Shown piece by piece: positions 18,901-35,105 of a DNA stretch of 58,717 nt. The stretch lies in the IMG/VR virus record IMGVR_UViG_3300045988_156049; one strand, given 5' to 3'. Both the position numbers and the translations under genes were made by a program. The first letter of the stretch is position 1; each line of letters starts with the position of its first letter. The DNA is from a virus. Under the pieces are notes generated by a model. The model saw only the letters and a list, made by a program, of their open reading frames with translations. It made no database searches and was not told the DNA's origin.

Positions 18901-19345
18901 GGGCGGTGTCGGAAAGACCATTAACAAGACGGCCAAAACTATTTCGATGATATGGAATCCGGAAATGCGCGATATCCGTAATGTGCCTATCGTAAGCACG
19001 TTCGTTCAAGAATCAGACGATGAGAGAGTCGCCGGCAGTCAATTGAATCGTGAGTATGGTAAAGCAATGGAAGAATTCCGAGAAACAGAACATACGATTT
19101 CTGGATATAAGAGAAAGGCAAGGATGGGCTCGATGGAATATGCTGATAAACTATCTGATTTCATGAATACTCCTGAATTCAAGAAGTATTCGAAGATGAA
19201 AGGATATGCATCGTCTATCGCGAAATTGAGGACGGCACTGAAGAAAACGGAAGAACTCAATGGGGATGTGATGGATGCGGAATACTTGCAGGAGATGCTT
19301 CGGGAATTGAAACAGCAGATGTTGGAGGAACTGAAAGAAGATTAG
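3992..19345 (+). CDS. Giant polyvalent multi-domain protein (5117 aa), probable virion-packaged and injected effector/ejection protein
   Basis: Uninterrupted 15,354-nt ORF with an ATG start. It holds a serial array of enzyme-like motifs (ParB-like GNNR, PPase-like, MNT, HEWWH and HEYTH zincins, two VVYHG ART-like modules) and a C-terminal module with two TM helices. It is flanked by internal-protein candidates and the portal. Confidence 0.9.
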   Translation: MPKYRVNGDTYNIPEEKVSAFEKRYPNATVDIYDNDGAEYSLPVSEKVNFQKQFKNWSYTAPAAPSAPSAEKIDSVEQPGPVMPNPAMENRNWEVQMGNGHSRATVEKPEPVDVPIPQRPEGLEPSDDGTAAPSGDVRSYLENANRQQVANLSRDINSRLDEAQTKSRDIYMKEQEDARKGGFLSTLAHAIAASGHNPEGGSGGMSDAQQRTLQGANSELQSEISKLEAAKNAMSNAEEIIAEADKSVQEGKFPGFFKGVARGFGDKLFDVNTWDMGVSDTKNSIELLKALRKYDEGKPLSESEQMLLDAKSVELATNAYFGSYIGRGYKAGAVTAQSLPFMLEMAVNPASTLGESTQSMLARYALSRFAKKGATRAAQKFATKAAGAAGRALGDIAGSAVMAGTSGAVRVAGDAIDRHVGDIETDMDGQGQTVFAGHDPESLGKSIAKAFTSTAIENHSEMLGEYFAPALGIVSKLGRKGMEKFGLKNVVDFVDDVSATDAAKLIADFQKRTKWHGTIGEYAEEVAGNIENAILVGDSTLDSSDDTGVFNLDQNIDTFLGVALMGGVFSTIRTAAWRTPKYRARKEMEKARAKAKKKFGDQEWQDIEDRLAEAGDEGMSSVLSEVIIGERNPEREKAILDYAKSIKIYEGTLKGDEKHRELSSPEMTDLESSYENGYTLATPQEVHDAKIMFEYQQARLQQALGMSSIDIETLMLGNEMGKLTEEQKSVALDYLNAEATFDGVIDRVRDDIDNRISSVNAAIDASTNSDTGKLQPARLVDDRAVHIISGVVRLTPDGTMVDIHNSEDYIIIRDDKTGKIESVSPSQIVGVDAEIDPESEKKAAESQIRGQIGQQKADIIDGVLQFNPGDVYTLTNEQGQSFTVQVAADEQGVVDNGDGTINVILNEDIDANTGLPRISQMSKEQIENMAEATNMARLQQYEQQKLDVDARQYEEDSTGRTPENPFKINDRISFNDVGSGSVKHGIVESELTDDGKYEIAIENDGSIESVSYLSPEDLSNMQAQLVQSVEEQEAPEIEQNPVKIEQNPVKIEQPEQPQVSAFERIPKDEQGNPIYEQAETPDLAWDAIVEQTDGDEAMAQTVTDGMVADKETALKKVEKAKSKGGATIAEKIAAEKERKAAIEEAKANLAVWKRIAQTARRRKDAEESEKRRIAEEQAAIRKAEEEKLRAEREEAERIKREALNGVPDISDDTPQDARARGYRRVSGHKVDRQEPIPHLQGNDIAVKFSDDVIVPGRVAVIEAETLQPSHIQGTRNPAHFIDESQPKERTDDASVLSARKIARNIRPEEITSSITAYTGAPTTNVRGEVIQGNNRSDALRLIWEGDKEQSAIYKQYLMDHAADFGLNADEISAMNHPVLVNMLDVDDAKAITLGQFVAQDTESGGTERIKPKNAVQKMGADMRTFADMLLASSDDETSFAGLVDRNGDEVLAWMNRRGFITPTQYKSAFDSKGGITAEAKNDLKGIMYQSIFTGGNIRLEEMFNAMPAKAQRAILATAFRDNESPNTERMVKEIQNSIRAYNALSQGEDFANAKNWKEARLAVESWKMQYAMDDVTGESYLPAEKFSNFALHLATMYKGESQSLIQSTFNHLYDLIQGTQEETLFEKPDNTPRTLAQAILETLNFEYDGQQRSNVLAGDSTASQEREQGSTGTPAAGERVEGGEQPADNTGGTENESGSGEVREKIAEEGSKVNTNPSDAQKEAGNYRMGHVKIDGMDVTIENPKGSIRKGRDADGKEWQSEMHNDYGYIRGTKAVDNDHIDIFLSDDPEHGNVYVIDQVDPKTGKFDESKVMYGFSSEQEARDAYLSNYEEGWKGLGKITEVTKEEFKKWIDSSTRKTKPFSEYASVKAAKPQKEKPVQGIEGYSRDEIKGIVADHINDVMRDNDIHAEIIGMDIHGSRNRHDARPDSDLDVVVEYRGDIREDDMFNALNGEEDALSINGIKVDINPIRKEETGDLQGYMKQSEEYDREKSEHAKQKGSSTTSEIKNNKSGKIEDYGEQISGARKDMLRDLAKSVQNTSLESLISLPFSKAFKKPNLSKAVEEGALRDKDARFAQAAIAAFLSTKKPVAGTKDERRRQRWGEKTNVEKWAEKAYTGIKILQELFDADERVRDKVIEAAVADKYVGVAEAKAQQQRIGELNHREFNGTSYPLNLIALYNEVFDRLGYPAGQNTKIPVGRIVCSSTFDSYSLRGVNGEDWIYPSRSLKSFEDVVDELVYLIKVANADETADHPIENFKIRGINPKVETTGYRVLAAKNLTTAITRGNRFAVDEIFPTREAALKRIEELKAKGLECSEPLEKRETVGYEKYQISFAHPITREFIPLEKEYGSKEDAIAAPEAEHEELNRLANEAIAAATKKSGESVEKSYFHITHYYDKGSDGKYHWYYGVALDDKYGPKKTAFNTMPFFLAERLNSREEAQKQIDANKERWESLVKDVVRQRSNFVYFSGDNETRNGEDYRNGKDVTAEEFANKFGFRGVQFGNWANQADRQAALNNAYDSFMDMSKIIGVSPKAMSLNGELGVAFGSRGSGAASAHYEPGEVVINLTKTRGAGSLAHEWWHALDNYFSRAANVKLGYVTSDKRLPMREEMRKAFNDLVDDVEKSDYHTRSMDKGSSYWGTREEETARLFAEWIADEMAKRGELNNFLAGRYDAEDSYARMGYVFYKAIQKLKPEGEMMTFEEFRKTPMALKGFSYPTRAELEILGKDVRNIFGEVQERTDETTGNVALFQMVDKILSDNSPENRLAYEAVSQMLSNAGIPVELLSDQAMREMAINATMLDTVLPEDESSFKGTVISSIDGAKILNNLDKAIDRYNENPDNRPWTFIGDLASALGSSDKDKSSQYATFETKNGQVVTIRVSNHNATVSNFDNAGESNGISIVISRKPNEGMTNDGDAHIVEFFYPDKALNKAEGKPLVEILKSIKQSLYSGEYKDTTGLAQREEVNAKESVEFLREPDGTVYGATVGGKIYLNRERLNPNTPIHEYTHLWFSALKDANPELYKRGVELMKQLPIWEEVKTDSNYANLSGDDAIASECLSRLVGDKGTEKLTELAKKAMVRGDIIGTANRISLIEDFKDWLKKFWTWVRDSFAPWTKEEASRVSVDNIQNMVLSDLAKGVNPLARQAESDADIRFSIVKDPKLIEELDKGAKVKVYRAMQLIDGKLYPPMASKINGEFVRPIELGKWEQADEHPELIDKNGRFNLNKGNGKGLKAAYNPYIHTSRTPLNDQFSEAQSRPNIVTVEVEIPKSELSSGYQADKAKDSVGEMEWKAGIVQGQLTGKRKVILSRWDKPIRIVPDSEVANVIVNDMFKGRTITMPSNVVTPSLRAELEKLGVPFVQTDNTGHIVGGQYDGKYYSKVYGNGALAGNAKGKRMESETDRIVREAKENGTYMKAPNGKPTNLNERQWAQVRTRAFKKWFGDWEKAAEESPSTAKTNSSKIVDENGEPKVVYHGSPYRFFRFDKTKLGQSTGADSAKEGFFFTDNKELAELFSRYSLESLPVSDVEQLVKDRLLNMSENELNDAYEVYRNDSPDYLDYADETDSPNDRDYLEIRGFLLDGVSEEESKREYIQDSIESKIEGGYFSDMEEVEEELSSIGIEFGNNEQVFLNIESPLVDEVERDYFHNGEDVSPMTPVLQNAKRMGSDGVVFTGIVESGQKGAANQYVAFEPNQIKSATDNVGTFDVGQEDIRYRDSGQMDAEYMFAIESGDMRKAGRMVEAAFRKAFPGSKVKNVVYHGVAVSEDGRQFPYNSIREGHFTDDEGFAEYYAGSDGYVYKVFLDIESPLEQDFRGQNSDFARDAEGNDVSTRTFARRVKDSNGRYDGAIITNVDEYGDGIEADGVGNYDGSVTDYIPVSADQIYSAEPVVYDDNGQVIPLSRRFENGNPDIRYKHDETGNGSRTSQDVEAAAIKLAESLGEKVRLVRDVNEIENQNKKVQENQRKSKGWFNTGTGEIVVVLPNATGIEDVQATILHEAVGHKGLRELVGDDRFDDFLDKVYAAASVNTRREIVNLARRSHWDFRLATEEYIAGLAENGFAGRENRTLFEKIKDFFRDMLSRAKIALGVNIGDNELRYMLWRTYQMRTSRGILAKAEDISMQQSMKVGNFRNEVPEESSRLRFRNSSNGRRKSLARDIYEEKTRIVDRKGQKTDTANLMRRLKEAYVDSMQSLKYLQDAVAEETGKPVEDFENAYLAENTMSSKNKAQTDIYLNKFFNPIKDAIRELQKKSVEYNDIVRYLMAKHGLERNVVFSKRDAQRAGAVWDGIVRRDYSGLTELTRQESDTSTPSIREITSRANEIVHNFEKEYYVDELWSAINNATKETLRTSYVDGLLTKDNYEMVRSMFDYYIPLRGWNENVASVEYDYLSDSKPKTSQIVKAATGRTTISDDPIATIAYMGQSAIIQGNRNMMKQKLLNLALNHKTGLLTVNRQWEVQDPVTGEWITRNPVIPVDATPEEVADIVSQFETDMKAAEKNGTARISRGKLDTGKHITAYEGQEHVVKVKRGGIEYCIYLNGNPRAAQAVNGMTNPDAVDSWLIRKARVIKNFMARMFTSQNPAFIISNLSRDVIFAGTAVFAKEDSKYTALYTKNIARALAKGQLIGLVHRFETGRLDDSKDIDRYFGEFIRNGGETGFTQLNTVDDFKRDLNRFAKEMTQGQVMKVSSKVWNGIWDGVEFMNRCAEDATRFSVYMTSRQMGRSVERSISDAKEITVNFNRKGSGGFGARVMNFAYIFFNAAIQALANAGKIFYEHPVKSAVALSTFSVAGFLAPLLAQAIISAFGGDDDAYWDLPEWVRRNNFVFYVPWSDNKFLIIPISQELRPFYALGEVAMSVLMGKEDVLEGLRSVGGSFMDLLPVDFMGNGNNLAVSLTPTVAQPFAQLVANSDYFGKPIYRRNDYNRLDPAWTKAYKGTSSMLINASKWLNEVTGGDDVKRGWIDPVNNPAVIEHLFESYLGGVGKTINKTAKTISMIWNPEMRDIRNVPIVSTFVQESDDERVAGSQLNREYGKAMEEFRETEHTISGYKRKARMGSMEYADKLSDFMNTPEFKKYSKMKGYASSIAKLRTALKKTEELNGDVMDAEYLQEMLRELKQQMLEELKED
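7098..7149 (+). repeat. 21-bp in-frame tandem repeat (about 2.5 copies) in a linker of the giant protein
   Basis: AAATCGAACAGAATCCTGTCA occurs at 7098-7118 and 7119-7139, with a partial copy to 7149. It encodes (E)IEQNPVK IEQNPVK IEQ. Confidence 0.9.
7740..8130 (+). other. ParB/Srx-like domain within the giant protein
   Basis: VIEAETLQPSH ... TNVRGEVIQGNNRSDALRLIW. The GNNR motif sits at about 7984-7995 and resembles the ParB-fold G-x-x-R phosphate-binding motif. Confidence 0.4.
9160..9560 (+). other. Family-I inorganic-pyrophosphatase-like domain within the giant protein
   Basis: VTIENPKGSIRKGRDADGKEW...HNDYGYIRGTKAVDNDHIDIFLSDD parallels the PPase pattern E-x-P-K-G-S..K-Y-E ... Y-G-F-I-P-x-T..D-G-D-P-x-D-V. 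Confidence 0.6.
9640..9915 (+). other. Minimal nucleotidyltransferase (MNT, pol-beta superfamily) domain within the giant protein
   Basis: IIGMDIHGSRNRHDARPDSDLDVVVEY fits the hG[GS]-x9-13-D-h-D-h signature. Confidence 0.7.
11440..11990 (+). other. Zincin-like metallopeptidase module 1 (HEWWH) within the giant protein
   Basis: FGFRGVQFGNWANQADRQAALNNAYDSFMDM...AHYEPGEVVINLTKTRGAGSLAHEWWHALDNYF. HExxH is at 11720-11734. It resembles the MPTase module recurrent in polyvalent proteins. Confidence 0.6.
12910..13100 (+). other. Zincin-like module 2 (HEYTH) within the giant protein
   Basis: GGKIYLNRERLNPNTPIHEYTHLWFSAL. HExxH is at 12998-13012. Confidence 0.45.
14390..15125 (+). other. ADP-ribosyltransferase-like module 1 (polyvalent-protein ART type) with a large acidic insert
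   Basis: PKVVYHGSPYRFFRFDK...KEGFFFTDNKELAELFS ... QVFLNIESPL ... NQYVAFEPNQIKSATDNVGTFD. Confidence 0.45.
15235..15720 (+). other. ADP-ribosyltransferase-like module 2 (tandem paralogue of module 1)
   Basis: VKNVVYHGVAVSEDG...EGHFTDDEGFAEYYAG...YVYKVFLDIESPLEQDF...DGAIITNVDEYG...ADQIYSAEP. It shows the same YHG / F(T) / (F)L(N/D)IESPL landmarks as module 1. Confidence 0.45.
15890..16150 (+). other. Conserved HEAVGH module within the giant protein (function unknown)
   Basis: NTGTGEIVVVLPNATGIEDVQATILHEAVGHKGLRELVG. The spacing is H-E-x3-H, so it is not a canonical HExxH. Confidence 0.3.
16380..19345 (+). other. C-terminal approx. 1000-aa module of the giant protein with a hydrophobic helix pair (about 18221-18385)
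   Basis: MNFAYIFFNAAIQALANAG and AVALSTFSVAGFLAPLLAQAIISAFGG are TM-like helices. YIPLRGW (about 17086-17106) is reminiscent of the PLxRFG-type C-terminal module reported for polyvalent proteins. Confidence 0.4.
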
Positions 19346-19432: not shown

Positions 19433-21427
19433 ATGTCTGAAGAAAGTATTAGACGGATGAGCCGCGTAAAACCGCGGAAAGAAAATGAAATGGATACTGT
19501 CGCCTTCTCTAAAAGTTTTGGCGACAGCAAGCGTGCTTTCGATATTGTTCTGGAAGCGCAGCAGCATTATGATAACATGGCTCGTTTCCGTAAGGATAGA
19601 GAAAGGTGCAAACGATATACTTACGGAGACCAATGGAAAGACATAATTACGGTTGACGGGGAGGATATGACGGAGGAGGAATACATCAAAAGCGAAGGAC
19701 AAGTCCCTTTGAAGAACAATCTTATAAGACGACTTGTAAGAAATGTCCTTGGTGTGTACCGGAGTCAATCCAAAGAACCGACATGTACGGCGAGGGATCG
19801 AGATGAACAGAAACTAGGCGAGACGATGAGTACGGTGCTTCAATGCAACATGCAGCGGAATCGTATGAATGAGGTCTATCCTGAAACACTTGAGGAATTC
19901 CTTATCAGCGGTCTGGCCGTCCATCATAAAAGCTTCGGATGGAATTCTGATAAAGGTCTGGACTGTTGGACTCGTGTCGTTTCTCCGGACATGTTCTTTA
20001 TGGATGCATATTCGCGTGATATACGAGGATGGGACGTAAACTTCATCGGAGAGATTCATGATATTGATTTCAACACACTGGTAGGGCAGTTTGCTCATTC
20101 TAAACAGGACTACCAGCGTCTTGCTGAAATTTATTCTTCTGCTCATGCCAGAAATAAAGGATATGTTGCGACATTCTGTAATGAGTTCGGTTATTATCGT
20201 AGGGCGAATATTGATTTTCTCGTCCCGCAGGATATTACCAGGTGTCGTGTTATTGAAGTTTGGCGTCGTGAAAGCAAGCCTAGATACCGTTGCCATGATT
20301 ACAGTACAGGAACTATCTTTATAATTGACGTAGAGGATTATCACGAGCTTGTCTTGGAAGAAAACGCCAAGCGGATTGCCAGGGGAACGTTAAACGGAAT
20401 TCCAGCAGATGACGTAGCGATTATTGACGCTGAATGGTTCCTCGACAAATATTGGTACTATTACTATCTCACGCCGTTTGGTGATATCCTGCAAGAGGGG
20501 GAGACCCCTTATAAGCACGGCAGTCATCCATACGTGTTCAAGGCATACCCTTTCATTGATGGCGAGATTCATAGCTTCGTTTCTGACTTCATTGACCAGC
20601 AGAGATATGTCAACAGGCTTATTACAATGTACGATTGGATTATGCGTGCAAGTGCGAAAGGCTTGTTGATCTTTCCGGAAGAGTGTATGCCTGACGACTG
20701 GAGCATTGAGGATGTGGCAGAAGAATGGCATAGGTTTAATGGCGTGATAGTGGTGAAAACCAAGAATAACCCATCCGGGACGTTGCCGAAACAAGTTGCG
20801 GCCAATAGCACGAATATAGGAATATCAGAGCTGCTGAATTTACAGCTGAAGTTCTTTGAAGACATCAGTGGAGTAAACGGTGCTCTCCAGGGTAAACCGG
20901 GATATTCTGGGATGAGCGCCAGTCTCTATGCGCAACAGGCCCAGAATTCTACAACTTCATTGTTGGACCTTCTTGAAAGGTTCAGCGCATTTGTGATAGA
21001 TGCGGCATATAAGGATGTCAAGAATATTCAACAGTTCTATGACAGCAAGAGATATGTGAACATCGCCGGCAAAAGCGGAGCTGAGGTGGTTTATGATCCA
21101 GATAAATTCAATGACGTAGAATTTGACCTGAGCGTTATGGAAAGCACCACGTCACCGGTATATCGCCAGTTGGCTAATGACTTCCTCATGGAGATATGGA
21201 AGTCCGGACAAATTAGTCTTGAACAGCTTCTTGAACATGGAGATTTCCAATTCGCAGACAATCTTCTTCAGGACATAAACGTACAGAAGGAGGAATTGTC
21301 CAAGGGAAATATTCCTGAAGGGATTTCGCCTCAGATGCAAAAACAGGTTCAGCAAGGTGCCAATATGGGTGCGGTGAATACCTTGCATGACGCTATTACG
21401 GCAGAGGCAATGAGAAGTAACGCATAA
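19433..21427 (+). CDS. Portal protein (candidate)
   Basis: 664 aa. N-terminal CKRYTYGDQWKD...PLKNNLIRRLVRNVLGVY resembles the Y-x-G-x-Q-W / N-x-I-x-x-x-V pattern of portals. It has an acidic C-terminus and converges on the terminase operon. Confidence 0.6.
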   Translation: MSEESIRRMSRVKPRKENEMDTVAFSKSFGDSKRAFDIVLEAQQHYDNMARFRKDRERCKRYTYGDQWKDIITVDGEDMTEEEYIKSEGQVPLKNNLIRRLVRNVLGVYRSQSKEPTCTARDRDEQKLGETMSTVLQCNMQRNRMNEVYPETLEEFLISGLAVHHKSFGWNSDKGLDCWTRVVSPDMFFMDAYSRDIRGWDVNFIGEIHDIDFNTLVGQFAHSKQDYQRLAEIYSSAHARNKGYVATFCNEFGYYRRANIDFLVPQDITRCRVIEVWRRESKPRYRCHDYSTGTIFIIDVEDYHELVLEENAKRIARGTLNGIPADDVAIIDAEWFLDKYWYYYYLTPFGDILQEGETPYKHGSHPYVFKAYPFIDGEIHSFVSDFIDQQRYVNRLITMYDWIMRASAKGLLIFPEECMPDDWSIEDVAEEWHRFNGVIVVKTKNNPSGTLPKQVAANSTNIGISELLNLQLKFFEDISGVNGALQGKPGYSGMSASLYAQQAQNSTTSLLDLLERFSAFVIDAAYKDVKNIQQFYDSKRYVNIAGKSGAEVVYDPDKFNDVEFDLSVMESTTSPVYRQLANDFLMEIWKSGQISLEQLLEHGDFQFADNLLQDINVQKEELSKGNIPEGISPQMQKQVQQGANMGAVNTLHDAITAEAMRSNA

Positions 21428-21909: not shown

Positions 21910-24033
21910 TTAAGCGATTATAGCCTCTGTCGGATTATTCCAACGCGATGACTTGTGATTCGGTTGCTGTTCTATTTCTATAATTCTAGGAATTTCCATT
22001 TCTGTGAAACTGATAAGAAGACCTATGCCTCGGGTCATAAGAAGGTCGTCATGCATACCTAATATTGCACCCCAGGCTCCGTTAGGTTTTTTCTCGTATG
22101 TGAGATATTCGTCCAGACATCTTCCATCTCTTTCTGTATATAGACCTTCCCGAATGACCTTGACAAGTATTGATACTATTTTCGGTTTTGTGCTGACATT
22201 AGTATGAAAGCCGTATTTCCGGGGCATCTGTTTCCTTATATCTTCGTCACTTTGTGGACGGGCATATAGATTCGGATAGGCATCTTTGACAAGGTTGAGT
22301 ATATATAGTGACTGATCACCGTCAACTTGCCGTTCCGCATCGTGCGTCTCCAGAGTGTTGCTCTCAATAACGAGTAGGGCGTTATCATAATAGGCTGCAA
22401 TTTGAGCCGCTTTCCATGCGAGCAAGTCCATATCTATATGTCCATACCATTGCGCTACAACTGACGGCTTGCCGCCTTCCATTTGATAAAGCCTGTCAAA
22501 TACTACAATACAAGACCAGTCTGATTTCTTTGCGCGTCCTCCGATATCAACTACAACCAAGTACCTGTCTACTATTTTGATTTTTCTGTCAATTTCCGGC
22601 TTGCTCCAGATCCATAGCCTTCCTTGCTTGTCATCAATGAATCGAATGTTTGCAAATGCTTCTTTTCCATCATCTCCGTTCGCGCAGACTTCGCCAATGA
22701 ATCTTGGGGGCTTACAACTGCAACGTAGTTTTTCTACCTTGTATCTGTCGAATACACGCGCCCCTGAATGAGAAAACGCTTCTATGTCATCTGATGGAAA
22801 TTCCGAAGCCATATCTTCGTCGGAATCATGTGCGGCACGTTCAATGATATACCAGTTGATTGCGTCAAGTGATGCCCCGATAGTCCAGAGATACCACAGG
22901 TACTGTCCGGAAACCTCTCTGTCGGAGTTTACATTAGTGTTTTCACGATTGGACCATAGTTTGACAGCGAAGTCCCGAAGCTCTTTGGGATCTGATATGT
23001 ATAATGAGTACTGCGGTATTTGCCACCAGGCTACGAACATTGAGTCAAATTGGGATTTGCCGGTTTTTGCGGCTTCGTATTCGCGGTGAAAAAAATTGCC
23101 GGAGCCATTCGCCGTTGACTCGTAGATTATCATTGTCAATGGCCTATATAACACACCGGAACAGGCGGAACGGACAATATCCTGAGGCCGTTTCCCCTCG
23201 GTGCGTTTCCATAGACCTACTTCAGAACAGTGCACAAGGTTGTAGTCGCCACCACGCGCAGAGTCAGGCCGTTCTGCTGTGCCGATCTTTATCTTACATT
23301 TCCTTTGCGGGACGCGATGTATATTGCCGCTTTTTCCTACAGATTTGAATTTGATTTCCTTTTCGCTGTAATTCTCGGATATCGAGTGAAGATATTTCAC
23401 CGGATATCTGCTGATCATTCTGTCGAACATGTCCTGGATTTCATCAGACGCTGTCCCTTGATGTGCGACGATTAGAGAGTTGAGTCCTACTTTATGTACG
23501 AGTTGGAGCCAAGCCATGTACAACTGTATGCAAGTAGAACCTCCCCATTGCCTGGCTTTCAGAAGAATCAGTCTGATAGGTTTCCCTGCAAGCCTCATTG
23601 ACTCTAATCGCTCAATTAGCTTTCTCTGAGGATTGTTAAGCCTGAAAAGTGTATCTTCTCCTCCACCTTTGTTCTTGATGTACGCAAGAGTTGCCGCCCA
23701 AAAAGGATAATCGAATTTGATTCTTACTCGGACGACTTGTTCAATAACTTTTTGCTTTTCATTTTCGCTATAACAAGATTTCAATGAGTCTGTTATGAAT
23801 TTCCGTATGGAACCGGCCTTGACTAGTTTTTGAATCAATGGTACTGATTTCATTTCTTTTGGAATCCACTGCTCGGAAAAGGGGAAATCAGTAATCTTGA
23901 TTCTTACTCTAGATTTGAAGAATGTGGAGCCTTCACCGGTAACGGGATTGAATGTCTGTTCAATTCCGGAACGGCGTTTACTGTTCTCTTCTATGATCGC
24001 TGCGACGGCTCTGCTTTCTTCTTCTTTTGTCAT
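21910..24033 (-). CDS. terL: Terminase large subunit
   Basis: Walker A-like LILLKARQWGGSTCIQ and a C-terminal nuclease-like VVVDIGGRAKKSDWSCIVVFD. The track ORF starts at GTG 24060. The ATG at 24033 (MTKEEES) lies 1 nt after the rhomboid stop. Confidence 0.85.
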   Translation of the reverse strand: MTKEEESRAVAAIIEENSKRRSGIEQTFNPVTGEGSTFFKSRVRIKITDFPFSEQWIPKEMKSVPLIQKLVKAGSIRKFITDSLKSCYSENEKQKVIEQVVRVRIKFDYPFWAATLAYIKNKGGGEDTLFRLNNPQRKLIERLESMRLAGKPIRLILLKARQWGGSTCIQLYMAWLQLVHKVGLNSLIVAHQGTASDEIQDMFDRMISRYPVKYLHSISENYSEKEIKFKSVGKSGNIHRVPQRKCKIKIGTAERPDSARGGDYNLVHCSEVGLWKRTEGKRPQDIVRSACSGVLYRPLTMIIYESTANGSGNFFHREYEAAKTGKSQFDSMFVAWWQIPQYSLYISDPKELRDFAVKLWSNRENTNVNSDREVSGQYLWYLWTIGASLDAINWYIIERAAHDSDEDMASEFPSDDIEAFSHSGARVFDRYKVEKLRCSCKPPRFIGEVCANGDDGKEAFANIRFIDDKQGRLWIWSKPEIDRKIKIVDRYLVVVDIGGRAKKSDWSCIVVFDRLYQMEGGKPSVVAQWYGHIDMDLLAWKAAQIAAYYDNALLVIESNTLETHDAERQVDGDQSLYILNLVKDAYPNLYARPQSDEDIRKQMPRKYGFHTNVSTKPKIVSILVKVIREGLYTERDGRCLDEYLTYEKKPNGAWGAILGMHDDLLMTRGIGLLISFTEMEIPRIIEIEQQPNHKSSRWNNPTEAIIA

Positions 24034-24034
24034 G

Positions 24035-24535
24035 TCAAACCTTTTTATTGAGGAATGCACCTATTAGTCCGAACATATAGCAATACACGTGTAACCATAC
24101 GTCGATTGTATGTGGGAAAATGAAACCTATAAGTATTGTAGTGCAGATGCAAATCTGCCAATATGCTTTTTCCTTAACATTTAAGGAAACTCGTCCCAAC
24201 AAGTAGTAACAGACGCCGGAAAAACCAATTGTAAAATGAGGCTCCGAATATAGTTGTGACAATAAACCTACAGGATATGTTATTGCAGTTGCATATCCTG
24301 CCAGCAAGGATATCAATGATACGTCATATATGAATACTATTGATACGAGGCACCAGCAATTCATCATGGCATGAAGAAATGAGGTGTGAAAAAATGGATA
24401 AAAAAAACGGCTTGCTATCCCGCCTCCTGGATGTAGAGATATTGCCGTTATTTCAGGATTTGTAAAACACAGACAGACTGCGAGTAAGGAATATACTAGA
24501 CTTATACCCTGAGCCACTCTCTTGCTTCGTACCAT
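24035..24535 (-). CDS. Rhomboid-family intramembrane serine protease (compact, 6 TM, 166 aa)
   Basis: HTSFLHAMMN gives H-x4-H-x3-N. GFSGVCYYLLG gives GxSG. LHVYCYMFGLIG gives the catalytic His plus the Gly motif. There are six hydrophobic segments. Confidence 0.8.
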   Translation of the reverse strand: MVRSKRVAQGISLVYSLLAVCLCFTNPEITAISLHPGGGIASRFFYPFFHTSFLHAMMNCWCLVSIVFIYDVSLISLLAGYATAITYPVGLLSQLYSEPHFTIGFSGVCYYLLGRVSLNVKEKAYWQICICTTILIGFIFPHTIDVWLHVYCYMFGLIGAFLNKKV

Positions 24536-24927
24536 TGGTTTTTAATTTTTAATATGATCATGTGAGCGGAATTCGGCGTTAGATAGAATCGTGGTGCTTG
24601 CGAATTGACAACATCGAAGGTTAAACTATAGATTGAGTCATTCGGGCGTGTCTTTTTCAAATCCATGACTCTTTTATGAATCTCGTTAAACATTGCGCGT
24701 TTGTTGGGACGCATGTTGTCTAAATCATTCCCTTTAATTATCAGCGAAACGACTTTGGCAGCTCGCAGTTCACTGACCCAGAATCTTTTCGAAGGCATTT
24801 CTACAATTATTTCATACACATCTTTCATGGGACGCCCGTTCCGATGTGCCATTACTGTTCTGAATGCACGCATCAAGTCGCAGTTGCGCTCTTTCTCGTA
24901 TTCGAAATATGAACCGGTGTGTTTCAT
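24502..24927 (-). CDS. Hypothetical protein; small terminase subunit candidate by position only
   Basis: 141 aa and the first gene of the leftward packaging operon. No motif was recognised. Confidence 0.4.
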   Translation of the reverse strand: MKHTGSYFEYEKERNCDLMRAFRTVMAHRNGRPMKDVYEIIVEMPSKRFWVSELRAAKVVSLIIKGNDLDNMRPNKRAMFNEIHKRVMDLKKTRPNDSIYSLTFDVVNSQAPRFYLTPNSAHMIILKIKNQWYEAREWLRV

Positions 24928-25048: not shown

Positions 25049-25858
25049 ATGGAAAATACTGATAATAAGAAAGTTATCTCGAAAAGAGAATTAGCTCTTC
25101 AGCGTCTTAAATCAAAATATCCGGAAGATAATTTTGATGATGATGAGGCCGTTTTTGGTCGAATTAATGGTGATTACGATGAATACGATAAGAAGATAAA
25201 GGCACAAGATGAGAGAATCGCCGGTTATGAAGCTGATGAAAAGTCTCTTGGGGATATGTTTTCGACAGATCCTCGTTCAGCAAAGTTCCTGTCCAACTGG
25301 AAAAAAGGTGGAGATCCGGCAATTGCCCTGATTCAGGAATTTGGGAATGATATTGAGGAAATATTGCATGATCCGGAAAGACAGCAGGAGGTTGCAGATG
25401 CGAACAAGGCATTTGCTGAAAGAGTTGCCAAGAACAAAGAGTATGAGGAAGAATATAAAGTCAACCTCGATCAGTCAATGCAAAATATTGAAGACCTTAA
25501 GGCTAAAGGCTTTACTGAGGCAGAGATTGATGATATCATGCAGGCCACGATCTCAATTGTAAGTGATGGGTTGAGAGGTATATTCTCACCAGAGACTCTG
25601 ATGATGGTCGGCAAGGCAATCAGTCATGATAGAGATGTGACCAATGCCTCAGAGGAAGGAGAAATCCGTGGACGCAACGCGAAGATTGAAGAAAAATTGA
25701 AAAAGCCTAAAAAGAGTGATGGTATAGTGTCACTTGGCGGCAACAGTGGTGGTGCAGGTCTGGCTGACAGAAAATCTCTTGGCGCATTTGACAGATATGG
25801 AGATGGCTCCAGAACCATTTGGGAAAAAGGCGGAGAGAAAAGAATTCAACATAGATAA
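25049..25858 (+). CDS. Scaffolding protein (candidate)
   Basis: 269 aa, acidic and helical/coiled-coil in character, immediately upstream of the capsid gene. Confidence 0.5.
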   Translation: MENTDNKKVISKRELALQRLKSKYPEDNFDDDEAVFGRINGDYDEYDKKIKAQDERIAGYEADEKSLGDMFSTDPRSAKFLSNWKKGGDPAIALIQEFGNDIEEILHDPERQQEVADANKAFAERVAKNKEYEEEYKVNLDQSMQNIEDLKAKGFTEAEIDDIMQATISIVSDGLRGIFSPETLMMVGKAISHDRDVTNASEEGEIRGRNAKIEEKLKKPKKSDGIVSLGGNSGGAGLADRKSLGAFDRYGDGSRTIWEKGGEKRIQHR

Positions 25859-25888: not shown

Positions 25889-27313
25889 ATGAAGACAATC
25901 AACAAGTTCGGAAAATTTATCCTGTCAACGCTGCTGTCTGTGCTCTGTTTCGCATTGGGCGCGCAGTCAGGTGTGATGATGGCAGCAGCAAGTGAACTTC
26001 CTGATGCAGGTGTTACTACTTCAGGAAATCCTGGTGATGGCAGTGGAGGTATCTCCACTGAAAGTGATGGCCGCGAGAATGGCGATCCTGAGTTCTATTC
26101 AAAGGAAATTGACAAGCGTATTACAAAGATTCGTCCGATGGCTACGCCGGTGGATCAGATCAGCCGATATGCCAAATCAATTTCTACTGATAGCTTCGAG
26201 GTTAAATACTATTCAGTTGGTACTAGACCTATAGTATGCACTACTTCCGGTGAAGTGACTAAACAGACATCTGGTGAATCTGTTTCTCTTCCGGTTGATG
26301 ATGCGAACATGTTTACTATTGATGACACTATTCGTGTCGTCGGGGTGAAGGGCGAGTTTGATTACACTGGAGCGGCTTATAATAAGAGTGATGAGAATAC
26401 TCCGGATCTTCAGCTCAAAGTCTGTGGAAAAGACGCCAGCACATCAATGCCTACCGTTTATGCCGTTAACGGCTTGAAAGATTCTACCGGAAGGGCTATT
26501 TGGGTCCCGGCGATTCCGAGCGGCACTAAACTGGTTCGAATGGGCAAAGCTTGTGCTGAACTTGAAGTTCAGACGGGGCGTTTTAATAACATACCGACAG
26601 CCGAGGTTCAGTATTGTCAGAATTTTATGATCCAGATTGAGCAGTCTACTTTTGACAGGATTGCAAAGAAAGAGGTTGACTGGAGTTTTTCTGACATGGA
26701 GGAAGACGGAATCTATGACATGAAGCTCGCAAAGGAAAACACTCACCTCTGGGGTGTAAAGAACGTTATTTCTCATTCAACAAGTGATGGTATGAAAACC
26801 TGGTTCACCGGAGGCCTTTGGTGGATGGCAGGGAAAGACATTGAGGTGGGAACCTATAATAATGATACCAAAACAACTACCATTACGGACGATAACCTGG
26901 TGGATATCGCAAAGGACCTTTTTGTCGGAACCGGTATCGGTAACAAAAAGAAGGTGCTGTTCTGCGGCTCGGATATGCTCGCTGCCTTCTCAAAAATTAA
27001 GAGCGAAAAGTTCAGGCTTAAAGATACAGTTGAGGTTTGGAATCTAAAATTCAAATCCTGGGATACGGACTTCGGTGAGTTGCTGACAATCCATCACGAG
27101 CTGTTCGATGCTAATGGAATGAGCGATTGCGGATTTGCCCTTGATCCGGAATATTTGACTAAAGCGGTGCATGTGTCTTGGTCAAGAAATATTCTTGATT
27201 TGAAGAAAGCAGGAGTCAGAAACACGAATGCTGTAGTTATGCAGGAGGTCTCTTGTCTTTACTTGAGGTATGCTAAAGCTCATGCGAGAATGAGATTGGC
27301 TCATGCAGCATAG
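25889..27313 (+). CDS. Major capsid protein (candidate) with an N-terminal signal/TM-like extension
   Basis: 474 aa between the scaffold candidate and a strong terminator. The core from EIDKRITKIRPMATPVDQISRY onward looks capsid-like (..NYCQNF-type YCQNFMIQIEQSTF, THLWGVK). The first approx. 70 aa are MKTINKFGKFILSTLLSVLCFALGAQSGVMMAAAS followed by a G/S/D-rich linker. Confidence 0.6.
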   Translation: MKTINKFGKFILSTLLSVLCFALGAQSGVMMAAASELPDAGVTTSGNPGDGSGGISTESDGRENGDPEFYSKEIDKRITKIRPMATPVDQISRYAKSISTDSFEVKYYSVGTRPIVCTTSGEVTKQTSGESVSLPVDDANMFTIDDTIRVVGVKGEFDYTGAAYNKSDENTPDLQLKVCGKDASTSMPTVYAVNGLKDSTGRAIWVPAIPSGTKLVRMGKACAELEVQTGRFNNIPTAEVQYCQNFMIQIEQSTFDRIAKKEVDWSFSDMEEDGIYDMKLAKENTHLWGVKNVISHSTSDGMKTWFTGGLWWMAGKDIEVGTYNNDTKTTTITDDNLVDIAKDLFVGTGIGNKKKVLFCGSDMLAAFSKIKSEKFRLKDTVEVWNLKFKSWDTDFGELLTIHHELFDANGMSDCGFALDPEYLTKAVHVSWSRNILDLKKAGVRNTNAVVMQEVSCLYLRYAKAHARMRLAHAA

Positions 27314-27815: not shown

Positions 27816-28475
27816 ATGTTTTTCACACTTGACAAGTTAAAGAAAGAAATCCGCATTGCCTTGGATCAGAACAATAGCAGTGCTTTGTTGGAGGGCGTTG
27901 GGGACATTGATACTCTTACTGTAGAAGAAATTATCACAAGTAAGATTGTAGATGCTGTACGGATGGTTACTATTGATGCGCCTTCATATCTACTTGATGG
28001 GGGAAAGCCTTTTGCTGGCAGTCTCGCTTGGGAGAGCCAGCCGGGATATGGTTGTGGATGGACATTGCTGCCGGATGATTTTATGCGGCTCGTCTGCTTT
28101 AAAATGAGCGATTGGAGTTATGCCGTAACTGATGCCGTCTTGGAGGATAGTCAGGTGTATCGTATGCAACGGAGCAGATTCCCAGGAATTCGTGGGAATC
28201 CGGAACGTCCGGTTGTTGCAATTACTTCTCAACCAGCAGGTCTGGTTCTGGAGTTCTATTCCTGTTCTGCCGGAAGCGAGGCCTATGTTACAAGGGCAAG
28301 ATATATTCCTGTCCCTAAAATTGTTGCTGACGAAGCAGATGTTGAGGGTATTGAAATATGCGAAAAGTTGAAGCCCGCTGTAGTGTATTATGCGGCATAT
28401 CTTACGGCATTGAGTACAGGAGCCGCAGATCAGGCAGCGGCTCTATTACAAACCAGTAGAGAATTGATTAAATGA
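27816..28475 (+). CDS. Hypothetical protein; head completion/adaptor candidate
   Basis: 219 aa. It has an ATGA stop-start overlap with the next gene. The role is positional only. Confidence 0.5.
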   Translation: MFFTLDKLKKEIRIALDQNNSSALLEGVGDIDTLTVEEIITSKIVDAVRMVTIDAPSYLLDGGKPFAGSLAWESQPGYGCGWTLLPDDFMRLVCFKMSDWSYAVTDAVLEDSQVYRMQRSRFPGIRGNPERPVVAITSQPAGLVLEFYSCSAGSEAYVTRARYIPVPKIVADEADVEGIEICEKLKPAVVYYAAYLTALSTGAADQAAALLQTSRELIK

Positions 28476-30491: not shown

Positions 30492-31883
30492 ATGGCAATA
30501 CCATCATGGATAACAGTTAATCCCATTTCGGGTACAGGTAATAAGACTGTTTCAATAACTGCTCAGAAAAATACGGAAGTTAGTGATAGAAGTTTTTTAC
30601 TAAAAGTAGTTACTGCTGGGGGAGTCACTAAAGAAATAACAATAACTCAAAAATCTGAATATCTCGCAGTTTCTGGCAAAGGTATTCTTTGTGAAATAAG
30701 TATTTTAGGGGCTATATTTACTCAACTTGGAGTGACTGCAATAACTTTCGGTGCCTACATGGAATTTACAAATGGAGACACTATAAAATGTGGCACTTTA
30801 ACTTTGACAAAGGGTTCAGCAGGAACCGCCTCTACTGGTTATTTGAGGCTTGCTTCAGATGACAGCTACATTCTTCCTACTGGACTAAAAGGGGTATATA
30901 TAAAAGCATATGAAGGACAGGAGGCTTGGGTATCTGGCAATGAGATTACTGATATTAAATTTGGTTATTCTGGAGATGTTGCTCCATTTGGATTAGTAGG
31001 AAATGCACATAATTATTTGGCTACGTTAAGTACTACAAAGGCAGGATTTGATGTAGATATACCAATAACTACAGATTGCGTAGTTGAGTATAGAGGGCAT
31101 ACTTATGGAACATTCACTATAACAAAACAGGCAGACCCAGCCAGATGGTCAGGAGTTCCTCAATTTGCAGAAGCAATTAAACAGCATGGTGTTACATATA
31201 CAAGTTCACAGGTAACTGTCTATAATGTACCTACAAATGGGACTTTGGAAGCATATTGTGAAATAGCTTCTATAAATTCTGAAGAACCCAGCCCAGTGCC
31301 ATATATAGATGCTACAGATAGTGGAGACGTAGGAGCTAAATTAGTGGTGCATCCTTTAGTTACTGATGGCACTAATAATAGCATTAAACTTGAATTTAGG
31401 CTCACTATTACTGATTATTCTAAATTTACCAGCTATATAGATGTATATGCAAATGGCAATGGCACTGCTGAAAGTCTATATCACGGACTAATGCGTCTTA
31501 ATTTTGCAGTTAAGGGGTTAAATGGAGATTATGTAGGGTCAGGAGAATCTAATGATATAACTATATATAAGGACAAGCCAAAGTTAACGTTGTCTCCAAA
31601 AACTGCAACAGTTGGTCTGGAGGAAGATGCTGTTTACACTTTAGCATACGAAGGCATAATTCCTTCTACTTTAGAATTCGTGTCGTCTGATATTCCTGAT
31701 GAATATGGTTATGTAACATTGGATTGGAATCCTCCTACAGGTAATAATGATGCTTCTGGAAGTTTTACCTTTACAATAAGCTGTAATTCAGAGGCTTACT
31801 CTGGTGACTATCCATTCGTCATTAGATGTAGAGACAGTATTTTTAACCCTGCTGATGTTAATGGAAATTTCATTATTGACTAA
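30492..31883 (+). CDS. Tail fibre/receptor-binding protein starting with the second half of a BACON/Ig-like domain
   Basis: MAIPSWITVNPISGTGNKTVSITAQKNTEVSDRSFLLKVVTAGGVTKEITITQ follows the W-I-T-V-x-P..G-x-G...V-x-V....N....R pattern. 463 aa. Confidence 0.65.
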   Translation: MAIPSWITVNPISGTGNKTVSITAQKNTEVSDRSFLLKVVTAGGVTKEITITQKSEYLAVSGKGILCEISILGAIFTQLGVTAITFGAYMEFTNGDTIKCGTLTLTKGSAGTASTGYLRLASDDSYILPTGLKGVYIKAYEGQEAWVSGNEITDIKFGYSGDVAPFGLVGNAHNYLATLSTTKAGFDVDIPITTDCVVEYRGHTYGTFTITKQADPARWSGVPQFAEAIKQHGVTYTSSQVTVYNVPTNGTLEAYCEIASINSEEPSPVPYIDATDSGDVGAKLVVHPLVTDGTNNSIKLEFRLTITDYSKFTSYIDVYANGNGTAESLYHGLMRLNFAVKGLNGDYVGSGESNDITIYKDKPKLTLSPKTATVGLEEDAVYTLAYEGIIPSTLEFVSSDIPDEYGYVTLDWNPPTGNNDASGSFTFTISCNSEAYSGDYPFVIRCRDSIFNPADVNGNFIID

Positions 31884-31961
31884 TATAGCATAACAAGGCG
31901 GTTAATCGGGTTAAACGCTTAATCTTATTAACTATTTTATAAACATTTAATTCAATTTATT

Positions 31962-33617
31962 ATGGCTAAACCAAAATGGATTACTCTTGGAACCACAGAA
32001 GGTTCCATGAATGGCTCAAGTGAAATTACTGTTGCCGCCTACACTGGTAGAGTTGCCAGAGAGGGCACTATTACAGGTACAACAGCAGGTGGAGCTACTG
32101 ATACTACAGCTGTATCTCAGGTAGGTGCTGCTGAGGCTATCATTATTGAAACAAAGACTTATTCTGCTGATAAAGTAGGTCAAAGCATCACTATTCAGGG
32201 TAAGTCTAACTCTGCTGACCTTAACATTGTAGTAGGAGATTCTACTATTCCAGGTCTTGTTTATAAGCTTGCAGTAGCAGGGGTAACTGATGAATCTTGG
32301 AATGGTAATTCTGATATATCAGTAGATGGAGACCCGGGTGCATCTGCAATGTATGACTTCACTCTTACTGTAAATGTTCCAGAGAACAAGTCAGAGTCTG
32401 CACGTGTAGCTAAGTTTGCAGTCAAGAATGCAAATGCTGACGTAACTTCAGGTGAAATTACCATCAATCAGGCAGCGGGTGTTAAGAACTACGCAGTTCC
32501 TATCATTATTACATTCTCTTACAATGCAAGTATTCCGGCATCTGGTGGAAGTGTAAGTCCTACTTTAAATTATATGCAAAAGTGGGGATGGAATGAATCT
32601 GATTCTAATGGTGGCTCAATTTCAGACCATACTCCTGCGGCTGGCGTAACCAGTTTTAAGGGTGGCAGTTCTACTAATAAAGATACAGGAGTAGTTACTG
32701 CATCCTCTAAGGGTACTGTTGAGTCGGGCATTACTGAAGTAGATAATGTTACTCTTGTCGTAACTCTTAATGGCAAATCTTCTGCTCCTAAGTCAGTTTC
32801 TGTTAAGCAGGCTGCAAATGCTGCTTCTTATGGTGATGTCAGCTTCTCAAGCAGAGTTCCTTCAATTGTTGATATTCCGGCATCAGGAGGTTCTGTGGAC
32901 AAAGCTGAAATTGAATGGTCTGGTGAAGGAGCTATTGTCACACAGAAGATTACATACACATCAGGAGCTGAGGTTACCATTTCAGATGAGGACGGCTCCG
33001 TAAACCCTGCATTTAATCCAATTCACATTGCTTACGGTGACCCTATTACGGCTGCTTCTAAGGGTACAGCAGTTTCTGCAAGAACTGAAGCAGGCGTCAT
33101 TACAATGACAGCCGAGGGTGAAGGTGACAAGACAGCAACCAAGTCACTCACTGTATATCAGGCAGCCAACACTGCAACTTATGGCGAGGTAACTATCGGT
33201 CAGGCTACTCCTGTATCTCTTGCTGCTCCGGGTGAGACTTACCAGATTGTTCCTGCTATGAAGCAGACAGTTACTTACACTTCAGGTGCTACAAGGACTG
33301 AATCTACTCCGGCAGACAACAAGGTACAGCTCTCTGCTGACTATGCAGTTAAGACTACTAAGGAAGGCTTCTCACTTGAGGCTAATGCAGGTAAGGTTAC
33401 CGTTAATCTCAACCCTACAACTGCTCCAAGAGAAGGCTTCGTTGTTACTATCTCGGCTGAGGGTGAAGGTGGTAAGACTGCTACTAAGGACATCACATTC
33501 AACCAGCAGGGTTCTAACTCAATTCTTGACCTCTCTCCTGACACATTGTCATTCATTGCAGCCGGTGAGACCAAGACATTGACTATCACATCTAATGATT
33601 CTTGGACACTTTCTTAA
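31962..33617 (+). CDS. Tail fibre with tandem Ig-like/BACON-like repeats
   Basis: 551 aa. Module ends recur (ITINQAAGVKNY, VSVKQAANAASYGDV, LTVYQAANTATYGEV, ITFNQQGSN). The N-terminus is KPKWITLGTTEGSMNGSSEITV. The C-terminus is LDLSPDTLSFIAAGETKTLTITSNDSWTLS. Confidence 0.65.
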   Translation: MAKPKWITLGTTEGSMNGSSEITVAAYTGRVAREGTITGTTAGGATDTTAVSQVGAAEAIIIETKTYSADKVGQSITIQGKSNSADLNIVVGDSTIPGLVYKLAVAGVTDESWNGNSDISVDGDPGASAMYDFTLTVNVPENKSESARVAKFAVKNANADVTSGEITINQAAGVKNYAVPIIITFSYNASIPASGGSVSPTLNYMQKWGWNESDSNGGSISDHTPAAGVTSFKGGSSTNKDTGVVTASSKGTVESGITEVDNVTLVVTLNGKSSAPKSVSVKQAANAASYGDVSFSSRVPSIVDIPASGGSVDKAEIEWSGEGAIVTQKITYTSGAEVTISDEDGSVNPAFNPIHIAYGDPITAASKGTAVSARTEAGVITMTAEGEGDKTATKSLTVYQAANTATYGEVTIGQATPVSLAAPGETYQIVPAMKQTVTYTSGATRTESTPADNKVQLSADYAVKTTKEGFSLEANAGKVTVNLNPTTAPREGFVVTISAEGEGGKTATKDITFNQQGSNSILDLSPDTLSFIAAGETKTLTITSNDSWTLS

Positions 33618-33711: not shown

Positions 33712-34101
33712 ATGAGAAAGTTTTTAAAGGTTATTCTGTTCCTGTTTCTGTTTATTTGGGAGCTCTTACAGAATCTTGTCGGGTTTTTATACCTAAAGCT
33801 CTCCAAGTATAAGTTTACTGTTAGGTATTTTCTTAACGGAAACGCCCAGATAAAGTATTACTATGCTCAGGAATTTCCCGGCGGGTTAACTTTGGGTGAG
33901 TTTATTTTTACTAATGGACCTCAACATGTAAAACACGAAAGGGGACACGTTATTCAGTCAAGGATATTGGGGCCTTTTTATCTTCCGGTTATAGGTGTGA
34001 ACTCATTATTACACGCAGCGTTCCACCATTGTAAAAACTACGTCCATTTTTGGACAGAAAAATGGGCCGAAAAATTAGGAAGTAGGCATGGCAAAGTATA
34101 A
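33712..34101 (+). CDS. Small membrane protein with an HExxH motif (HERGH)
   Basis: 129 aa with an N-terminal TM (KVILFLFLFIWELLQNLVGFLYL). VKHERGHVIQSRILGPFYLPVIGV is followed by AAFHH. It is the first gene of the lysis cluster. Confidence 0.55.
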   Translation: MRKFLKVILFLFLFIWELLQNLVGFLYLKLSKYKFTVRYFLNGNAQIKYYYAQEFPGGLTLGEFIFTNGPQHVKHERGHVIQSRILGPFYLPVIGVNSLLHAAFHHCKNYVHFWTEKWAEKLGSRHGKV

Positions 34102-34145
34102 AAAATTATGTTACCTCGACAACCAAAATACAAGGAGGAAAATGT

Positions 34146-34607: not shown

Positions 34608-34610
34608 GAT

Positions 34611-35036: not shown

Positions 35037-35105
35037 GAAGGGTGCTAATATGGGCGGCTACGGGTGGAGGTATCGAGGCTGCGGACTGATTCAAATTAGA
35101 AGGCA

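Follow-up and report, generated by a model that had tools for sequence, protein, structure and literature searches.

A candidate membrane-targeting leader on an HK97-fold major capsid protein encoded next to a phage rhomboid

The capsid gene and its product

The DNA considered here is a viral stretch of 58,717 nucleotides (IMG/VR record IMGVR_UViG_3300045988_156049), all of which is referred to as the window. It carries an open reading frame (ORF) that starts with ATG, runs from position 25889 to 27313 on the forward strand as an initial annotation had described, and encodes a protein of 474 amino acids. Judging from profile matches and a structural model, this protein is an HK97-fold major capsid protein (MCP) and the sole capsid protein of its phage, a gut phage of Bacteroides. 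The MCP begins with an extension that has the anatomy of an export signal, and a gene for a small rhomboid protease lies upstream on the opposite strand. The favoured reading, to which a probability of roughly 0.45 is given, is that the extension acts as a cleavable membrane-targeting leader which would be cut near A34/S35.

The MCP matches the Pfam family SU10_MCP (PF17236) with a score of 106.7 bits against a cut-off of 24.1 (E=2e-30). The match covers positions 9-288 of the 292 in the profile and is confined to MCP residues 69-468, so that about 68 residues lie outside the capsid profile; PHROG 26635 spans the full length of the protein. An AlphaFold2 model computed with a diverse alignment (27 sequences, 28-54% identity) has a mean pLDDT of 79.6 and consists of a helix at residues 4-24, a segment at residues 26-70 with pLDDT below 50 and a confident core at residues 71-474. 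A shallow alignment (38 sequences, 73-80% identity) gave an unusable model with a pLDDT of 43. When the PDB was searched with Foldseek, the MCP model matched capsid chains only, the best being that of Vibrio phage VP1 (9in6, E=3e-21), together with those of crAss001, SU10 and HK97, and the top capsid chains 9in6, 7qof, 7z48 and 1ohg each had a probability of 1.00. The HK97-fold core delimited by Pfam, AlphaFold2 and Foldseek corresponds to S71-A474 plus the stop codon (26099-27313, forward strand). The initial annotation had proposed an HK97-type capsid protein with about 70 extra residues before its core, the fold to be checked with a structural model, and the start of the profile match at residue 69, the confident model from residue 71 onwards and the Foldseek matches to capsids agree with it on both points. 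Its alternative, that the protein is not the capsid, is disfavoured by the SU10_MCP match, the HK97-fold model and the location of the gene in a head module that includes a P22-like portal, a terminase, a scaffold-like gene and an adaptor-like gene.

A homologue search with the MCP returned 1,529 matching clusters, and deposited records name these capsid proteins DUF2951 or DUF5309. Some close homologues (P0026, P0046, P0047, P0050, P0052 and others) are 547-639 amino acids long and possess extra Ig-like or related domains (PF02368, PF13287/PF13290). These domains must be C-terminal since the leader and the KIRPM anchor are at their usual position in the long proteins.

Anatomy and conservation of the leader

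The leader starts with a basic N-region, M1-K9 (MKTINKFGK; 25889-25915, forward strand, as are all segments of the MCP), which has three lysines (K2, K6 and K9). A hydrophobic core of 16 residues, F10-A25 (25916-25963), follows and was delimited from hydropathy, the AlphaFold2 helix and codon-position entropies. Residues 10-25 are the only strongly hydrophobic stretch of the MCP (Kyte-Doolittle value of 2.33 with a 15-residue window), and the charge-free stretch extends to residue 35. Overlapping the end of the core is a conserved junction motif, G24-A-x-S-G28-V-Φ-M31-A32-x-A34-[S/T]-x-L37-P-D-A-G41 (25958-26011), which was defined from 120 homologue clusters and is a candidate processing site. 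The remaining residues before the capsid core, V42-Y70 (26012-26098), form an acidic Gly/Ser-rich segment. Residues 36-69 include 8 Gly, 8 Asp+Glu and a single Arg (R62), which is the first basic residue past the hydrophobic core.

All 120 of the closest homologue clusters share this architecture. The initial annotation had recognised a basic n-region, a hydrophobic stretch and an acidic Gly-rich linker ahead of the core, and both the composition of the MCP and these 120 clusters bear this out. Among 150 sequences from a search of 50%-identity representatives (29-65% identical to the MCP), 115 have a charge-free hydrophobic stretch at the N-terminus with the same charge bias. Charges were counted in a set of 234 leader-bearing MCPs, where the N-terminal flank of the stretch has on average 2.7-3.0 Lys+Arg and 0.1-0.4 Asp+Glu, and the 15 residues that follow the stretch have 2.5-2.8 Asp+Glu and 0.4-0.7 Lys+Arg. 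In 97-99% of these proteins, the more positive of the two sides is the N side. According to the positive-inside rule, such a bias predicts an N-in/C-out topology, which is the orientation of export.

Entropies in 64 non-redundant close relatives indicate that the segments of the protein are constrained in different ways. For the hydrophobic core (residues 10-23), the entropies at the three codon positions are 1.34/0.67/1.52 and that of the amino acids is 1.80. The corresponding values are 0.55/0.39/1.41 and 0.66 for the junction motif (residues 24-41), and 0.49/0.40/1.42 and 0.64 for the capsid core (residues 71-250). The low entropy at the second codon position of the hydrophobic core is the signature of a translated hydrophobic segment. 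What is retained in the hydrophobic core is thus its hydrophobicity and not its sequence. Constraint on the junction matches that on the capsid core, as would fit a recognition site. The leader, comprising the first ~35 residues, is translated and under selection.

Conservation of the junction is nearly complete at several positions in the 120 clusters. Through the end of the hydrophobic stretch the counts are G24 108, A25 109, S27 100, G28 118, V29 113 and M31 103, those around the candidate cut site are A32 119, A34 118, [S/T]35 109 and L37 118, and the motif ends with P38 119, D39 118, A40 119 and G41 120. Position 33 varies freely (D 58, A 46, E 8, N 6). The classic pattern for signal peptidase I combines a helix breaker at -6 with Ala at -3 and -1 and leaves -2 free. 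Were the protein cut after A34, G28 would occupy -6, A32 -3 and A34 -1, and position 33 would be the free -2. The leader also has the charge distribution of a signal peptide, with a basic N-region and no early positive charge after the core. Hydropathy, charge bias and junction frequencies therefore agree with the initial description of a signal- or transmembrane (TM)-like helix with an end rich in small residues.

The V42-Y70 segment was described initially as a disordered linker. A pLDDT below 50 is in keeping with disorder, but the segment is not mere filler: L37-P38-D39-A40-G41, G46, G54, I55, R62, D66 and Y70 are invariant or nearly so. Part of the linker aligns with the N-arm of leaderless relatives, and the segment is probably an extended N-arm. 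A lipoprotein reading of the window MCP was considered and rejected, as there is no lipobox of the form [LVI][ASTVI][GAS]C (the sequence is S-V-L-C20, with Leu at -1) and most close homologues lack the Cys.

Start codon and the junction methionines

The ORF preceding the MCP gene stops with TAA at 25856-25858, which leaves a gap of 30 nt to the MCP ATG and not the 31 nt given initially. The 25 nt before this ATG are 84% A+T, and the mean for the same interval in 63 non-redundant relatives is 80%, compared with 71% at the starts of other genes in the window and 55% in the window as a whole. This A+T-rich context supports the upstream start. A possible second start is provided by two Met codons at the junction, M30 and M31 (25976-25981), given the conservation of Met and the alignment with the starts of leaderless proteins. 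Of the 234 leader-bearing MCPs, 194 (83%, versus 36% expected) have a Met close to where the uncharged stretch ends. A+T content before the junction Met codons is 32-40% in the window and averages 42% in the relatives. The preference of the initial annotation for the upstream ATG over the Met-Met pair holds up well on this comparison (80% versus 42% A+T). Its alternative, use of the internal start, draws support from the over-conservation of the junction Met but not from the poor A+T context ahead of it.

Leaderless relatives and lipobox variants

One genome per species was scanned with an alignment of leaderless representatives, which yielded 80 loci in Muribaculaceae, Porphyromonadaceae, Prevotellaceae and Bacteroides assemblies. 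Depending on the threshold, 42-43 of the MCPs at these Bacteroidales loci bear a leader and 37-38 are leaderless. Leaderless MCPs, which come from the same host order, start 7-16 residues before a shared GG(K/R)HV..PLTT motif, or later, which is close to the position of the small-residue junction of the leader, and the two forms interleave in a neighbour-joining tree of the MCPs. The leader is consequently an accessory module that is dispensable for the shell, and, to judge from the tree, it has been gained or lost repeatedly. Upstream of the leaderless MCP genes, no stop-interrupted leader or separate ORF coding for a TM segment was found. Testing the ORF clusters of the 80 loci for association with leader-bearing MCPs (Fisher test) yielded nothing but lineage-specific scaffold variants and genes from host flanks, with no protease among them.

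A lipobox-like L-x-[GAS]-C ends the hydrophobic core, with acidic residues next, in 13 of 43 leaders from this clade, which lacks the phage rhomboid and is a sister to the clade of the window (L149, L176, L179, L186, L189, L190, L192, L203, L205, L208, L213, L215 and L216). Capsid proteins with these N-termini resemble lipoproteins and may have another type of signal for export or anchoring in the position of the leader, an observation in favour of the membrane-targeting reading. The distance from leader to core is alike in the two groups, with medians of 43 residues in rhomboid-bearing and 42 in rhomboid-less phages. A portal homologue is found nearby at 64 of the 80 Bacteroidales loci and a terminase homologue at 4. 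At two of them (L151 and L156, about 9300-11300), a short scaffold-like gene and the MCP gene adjoin host-like genes upstream, which places the head module at the end of the element in this clade, unlike in the window.

The rhomboid gene and its distribution

A gene for a mini-rhomboid of 166 amino acids is located at 24035-24535 on the reverse strand, with the codons for Ser105 at 24221-24223 and for His148 at 24092-24094. Its product matches Pfam Rhomboid (PF01694) over residues 44-159 with 25.6 bits against a cut-off of 22.6. Residues R42, H49, H54, N58, G103, S105, H148 and G155 are invariant in 8 phage rhomboids that are 19-98% identical, and they align with the E. coli GlpG motifs H..H...N, GLSGV and AHIAG. 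They correspond to the serine of GxSG in TM4, the histidine of TM6, the H..H...N of TM2 and the L1-loop arginine expected of a rhomboid protease. The phage rhomboid is predicted to be catalytically intact, and its basic N-terminus, the loop between TM4 and TM5 and its C-terminus suggest that the protein is oriented N-in and that its active site faces the periplasm. The initial annotation had noted a phage rhomboid in the neighbourhood, and this gene proves to be a conserved part of the head module. A sequence search of the PDB with the rhomboid gave no match, and membership in the rhombosortases (TIGR03902) was rejected at 20.5 bits against an equivalog cut-off of 84.

The phage rhomboid family comprises at least 392 clusters, some of which are named 'Rhomboid family [Caudoviricetes sp.]' in their source. 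Presence of the gene was scored in fetched loci with a hidden Markov model (HMM) built from phage rhomboids. It was detected at 78 of 80 IMG/VR loci of close relatives, the 2 misses having no upstream DNA, at 10 of 10 loci of more distant lineages, and in the window, BS-TP4 and BF1-TP2. The last two, together with BKO1-TP3, are the sole cultured relatives, all temperate Bacteroides phages (PMC12694917), and all three have the terminase-rhomboid-small protein / scaffold-MCP layout. At all 91 informative loci of one clade the rhomboid gene lies 1.1-1.9 kb upstream of the MCP gene on the opposite strand. No MCP of this clade, in which MCP identity falls to ~36%, has lost the leader. Three rhomboid-bearing loci were first scored as leaderless; two proved to be artefacts of the threshold or ORF call and have a leader, and the third (L062) has its longest ORF beginning within the leader.

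Outside this clade the picture is different. No rhomboid was found within ±10 kb of the MCP gene at 19 P0192-like loci (MCP 31% identical), of which the five inspected carry a leader, and none of the 80 Bacteroidales genome loci has a phage rhomboid by the rhomboid HMM. A GlpG search of all ORFs with at least 4 predicted TM segments in the rhomboid-less loci gave one match, in host flank. This is a GlpG-like rhomboid on a Muribaculaceae contig (L170:20519-21200; phmmer E=1.5e-5 versus GlpG), and it indicates that at least some hosts own a rhomboid that could act on leader-bearing MCPs. Bit scores and the neighbour-joining tree place all rhomboid-bearing MCPs in one clade, and the co-occurrence of leader and rhomboid therefore counts as one evolutionary event.

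Possible roles of the leader

It is proposed tentatively, at a little under even odds, that residues 1-34 are a translated Sec-type leader, either a signal peptide or a signal anchor, fused to the N-arm of the capsid protein. The basic N-region would stay in the cytoplasm while the hydrophobic core enters the inner membrane. The junction G28-V-Φ-M-A32-x-A34↓S35 would then be presented at the outer face and cut, leaving a mature capsid protein that begins approximately where the leaderless relatives begin. Such a leader would be an accessory that the HK97 shell can do without. The sequence of the candidate cut site is of the signal-peptidase-I type, and the co-inherited phage rhomboid would be a second candidate, either for the cut itself or for clearance of the leader via G24-A-x-S-G28. 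No prohead protease was found among the ORFs of the window, whose only matches to protease families are the rhomboid and an M15 endolysin, or is annotated in BS-TP4. Several observations weigh against the proposal. An export-type leader conflicts with cytoplasmic head assembly, and the proposal does not account for a cytoplasmic pool of protein for building capsids. Signal peptidase I and rhomboids alike cut at the periplasmic face, which would put the capsid domain in the wrong compartment for DNA packaging. A Sec signal is expected to have a hydrophobic core of about 10-20 residues; the core of the MCP leader has 16, but the uncharged stretch, with a median length of 27 residues among close homologues, is long for a signal peptide that is cleaved. 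Finally, the junction Met is far more frequent than expected and aligns within ~2 residues of the start Met of leaderless relatives.

The excess of junction Met and its alignment with leaderless starts favour an explanation in which one gene has two products. Capsids would be built from a leaderless form begun at M30/M31, and the full-length protein, as a minor isoform that is exported or bound to the membrane, would have another role and may be a substrate of the rhomboid. This arrangement would solve the compartment paradox. The junction Met is followed by a small residue in 160 of the 234 MCPs, with M31 itself present in 103 of the 120 clusters, and purines are enriched at four-fold degenerate sites upstream (58% versus 40%), although this is a weak signal given that the sequences are not independent. 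The A+T content before the junction Met, however, is under the genome mean and far under that of real starts (71-80%), and third codon positions in 24-41 are as variable as those in the core, which indicates no added nucleotide-level constraint. Moreover, the Met is missing in some members, such as those with GVAIA or GVFLA, and ribosomes on the long form would cover the internal site. An internal start is accordingly somewhat improbable, but it is a serious rival, and one that is compatible with the leader model rather than mutually exclusive. It is very unlikely, by contrast, that the helix is neither inserted in the membrane nor cleaved, and that it instead serves as a short delta-domain-like bundling element in the procapsid, held by G24xxxG28xxxA32 packing, or is kept in the virion. 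N-terminal extensions and scaffold contacts of HK97-fold proteins do face the interior, as in HK97, P22 and T7, the spacing of G24, G28 and A32 resembles a glycine zipper, and the lack of a prohead protease gene in the window or the BS-TP4 annotation is in line with a helix that is not removed. A packing interface, unlike the hydrophobic core, would retain its sequence and not just its hydrophobicity, and an internal helix leaves the basic N-region, the acidic C-flank and the A-x-A unexplained. In addition, a separate scaffold-like gene exists, and the lipobox variants in relatives point to export machinery.

The initial annotation had put forward a model in which the full-length MCP is anchored in the inner membrane until the phage rhomboid cuts within G24-A34 and frees it for assembly. 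The part of the model that stands is the rhomboid itself, with catalytic residues that are intact and under purifying selection at 19-98% identity, encoded in an overlapping string with the terminase and divergently from the scaffold and MCP genes at all 91 informative loci. The leader has never been lost within the rhomboid clade, whereas it was lost several times in the rhomboid-less sister clade. No other protease was found in the window or annotated in BS-TP4, and the MCP is the sole protein of the structural module with an N-terminal TM segment. Rhomboid substrates have a motif with a small residue at P1, a large hydrophobic residue at P4 and a hydrophobic residue at P2', with Asp, Pro and Trp disfavoured from P5 to P2' (PMC2941825). 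V29, A32 and A34 conform to this rule, and G24 and G28 would destabilise the helix. A cut after A32, however, would have Asp or Glu at P1' in 66 of the 120 clusters (55%), with Asp reported to be deleterious from P5 to P2', while a cut after A34 would have a polar P2' in most sequences, and signal peptidase I offers the simpler explanation of the A-x-A. The bacterial rhomboid substrates that are known are single-pass N-out/C-in proteins whose motif sits where the TM segment begins, at its N-terminal (outer) end. The MCP leader is the reverse of this, with a predicted N-in/C-out topology and a motif that lies at the C-terminal limit of the hydrophobic stretch. In two other clades, at least 60 MCPs bear a leader and lack a rhomboid gene within 10 kb, the association within the rhomboid clade is a single event, and release of the MCP would be periplasmic. 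The holin, lipoprotein and TM protein encoded at 33712-35639 are alternative substrates. On balance, release of the MCP by the rhomboid is unlikely. It is likewise doubtful that a large clade of abundant gut Bacteroidales phages first anchors the precursor of its HK97 capsids in the inner membrane through a Sec-type leader, with the phage rhomboid acting as maturation protease or dedicated leader peptidase.

Neighbouring genes and the rest of the window

The head module begins with a gene for a P22-like portal at 19433-21427 on the forward strand (Pfam P22_portal, E=1e-41). The large terminase gene (21910-24060, reverse strand) was identified from PHROG terminase matches and overlaps the rhomboid gene by 26 nt, and its homologue in BS-TP4 was named terminase by structure-based annotation. 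On the other side of the rhomboid gene, with an overlap of 34 nt, is a gene for a soluble protein of 141 amino acids (24502-24927, reverse strand; phrog_27246). It co-occurs with the rhomboid at every one of 79 close loci and at 8 of the 10 distant ones and is possibly the small terminase. The head-to-tail overlaps among these three genes (21910-24927) suggest that they form one translationally coupled string. A scaffold-like acidic protein, identified by composition and by the position of its gene directly upstream of the MCP gene, is encoded at 25049-25858 on the forward strand (phrog_22323, function unknown), and homologues occur at all rhomboid-clade loci and at the 19 P0192-like loci. Downstream of the MCP gene, a profile match identified a weakly SU10-adaptor-like protein (27816-28475).

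Elsewhere in the window, a single ORF (3992-19345, forward strand) encodes a protein of 5117 amino acids with the polyvalent-protein domains LPD14, ddrB-ParB, inorganic pyrophosphatase, nucleotidyltransferase, LPD5, LPD1, ART-PolyVal and LPD38, and BS-TP4 has a similar giant gene just ahead of its portal gene. Two adjoining BACON-domain proteins (30492-33617, forward strand) are probably tail proteins that bind host glycans. Next comes a likely lysis cassette (33712-35639, forward strand), in which a gene for a small protein with a TM segment at its N-terminus accompanies those for a holin with 3 TM segments (PF05105), an endolysin of the M15 peptidase type and a protein that bears the lipobox-like sequence LVTSC. 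At the left end (297-1619, forward strand) is the gene for a tyrosine integrase with an Arm DNA-binding domain, which indicates that the element is temperate. An IMG/VR contig of 58,248 bp is 100% identical over the MCP.

Significance

Tailed-phage capsid proteins are taken to be soluble and cytoplasmic. A capsid protein with an export-type leader beside a phage rhomboid seems not to have been described, and it is hard to square with cytoplasmic assembly. The literature search found no paper on a phage rhomboid associated with a capsid, on phage-encoded rhomboids, on a leader or signal peptide on an HK97 capsid protein, or of relevance on DUF5309, and neither phages nor viruses are mentioned in a review of the rhomboid superfamily from 2025. 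A leader that is in use would bring the membrane and an undescribed processing step into head assembly. If the rhomboid takes part, this would provide a function and a natural substrate for at least 392 clusters of phage rhomboids, and were it the maturation protease or leader peptidase, tailed-phage head assembly would gain its first intramembrane protease and viral rhomboids their first function. Use of the internal start would be a new case of one phage gene placing one fold in two compartments. The observation of the leader is far broader than this single window, as 234 leader-bearing homologues from several clades were counted, and automatic pipelines likely mislabel these capsid proteins as secreted or unknown. 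BS-TP4 occurs in 31.3% of sampled Chinese gut viromes, or about one third (PMC12694917). The conflict between the leader and cytoplasmic assembly is the main reason the finding merits experiments, which the three cultured isolates make feasible.

Comparison with known systems

The closest systems are SU10_MCP (PF17236) capsids in P22-like head modules, which have a separate scaffold, a P22-type portal and no prohead protease. The window shares with them the fold, the Pfam family and the neighbourhood of portal, terminase, scaffold-like, MCP and adaptor-like genes. It differs in that the profile match starts at residue 69 of the MCP and already at position 9 of 292 in the profile, and the family model thus has no room for such a leader. 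Signals for Sec and signal peptidase I likewise have a basic N-region, a hydrophobic core, a breaker at -6 and a free -2 between small residues at -3 and -1, although the uncharged stretch of the MCP is longer than in the usual Sec signal peptide. The M13/fd procoat (pVIII) is a precedent for a phage coat protein that is made with a leader and parked in the membrane. Filamentous phages extrude at the membrane, however, which makes export of the coat sensible, whereas a tailed-phage capsid is filled by the terminase in the cytoplasm.

Removable N-terminal segments are also known from soluble capsid precursors. The delta domain of HK97 gp5 is removed by gp4, and the capsid and scaffold proteins of staphylococcal phage 80α are trimmed by a host protease. 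As in those proteins, the N-terminal segment of the MCP is dispensable for the mature shell; its junction is conserved, and there are relatives without it. The HK97 and 80α pro-sequences are soluble and cut by cytoplasmic or intracapsid proteases, whereas the MCP leader has the anatomy of an export signal and the sole phage protease candidate is intramembrane. A cut by the phage rhomboid would resemble the cleavage of TatA by AarA in Providencia stuartii (Strisovsky et al. 2009, PMC2941825), in which a small bacterial-type rhomboid cuts off a short N-terminal piece at a small residue by a TM segment, with hydrophobic P4 and P2' residues. TatA is N-out and cut at the N-terminal end of its TM segment, while the MCP leader is predicted to be N-in with a C-terminal motif and a P1' that is often acidic. 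The rhombosortase/GlyGly-CTERM system (TIGR03902) likewise uses a mini-rhomboid of similar size, to which the phage rhomboid has a weak 20.5-bit match, but rhombosortase substrates have a C-terminal anchor and the leader of the MCP is N-terminal.

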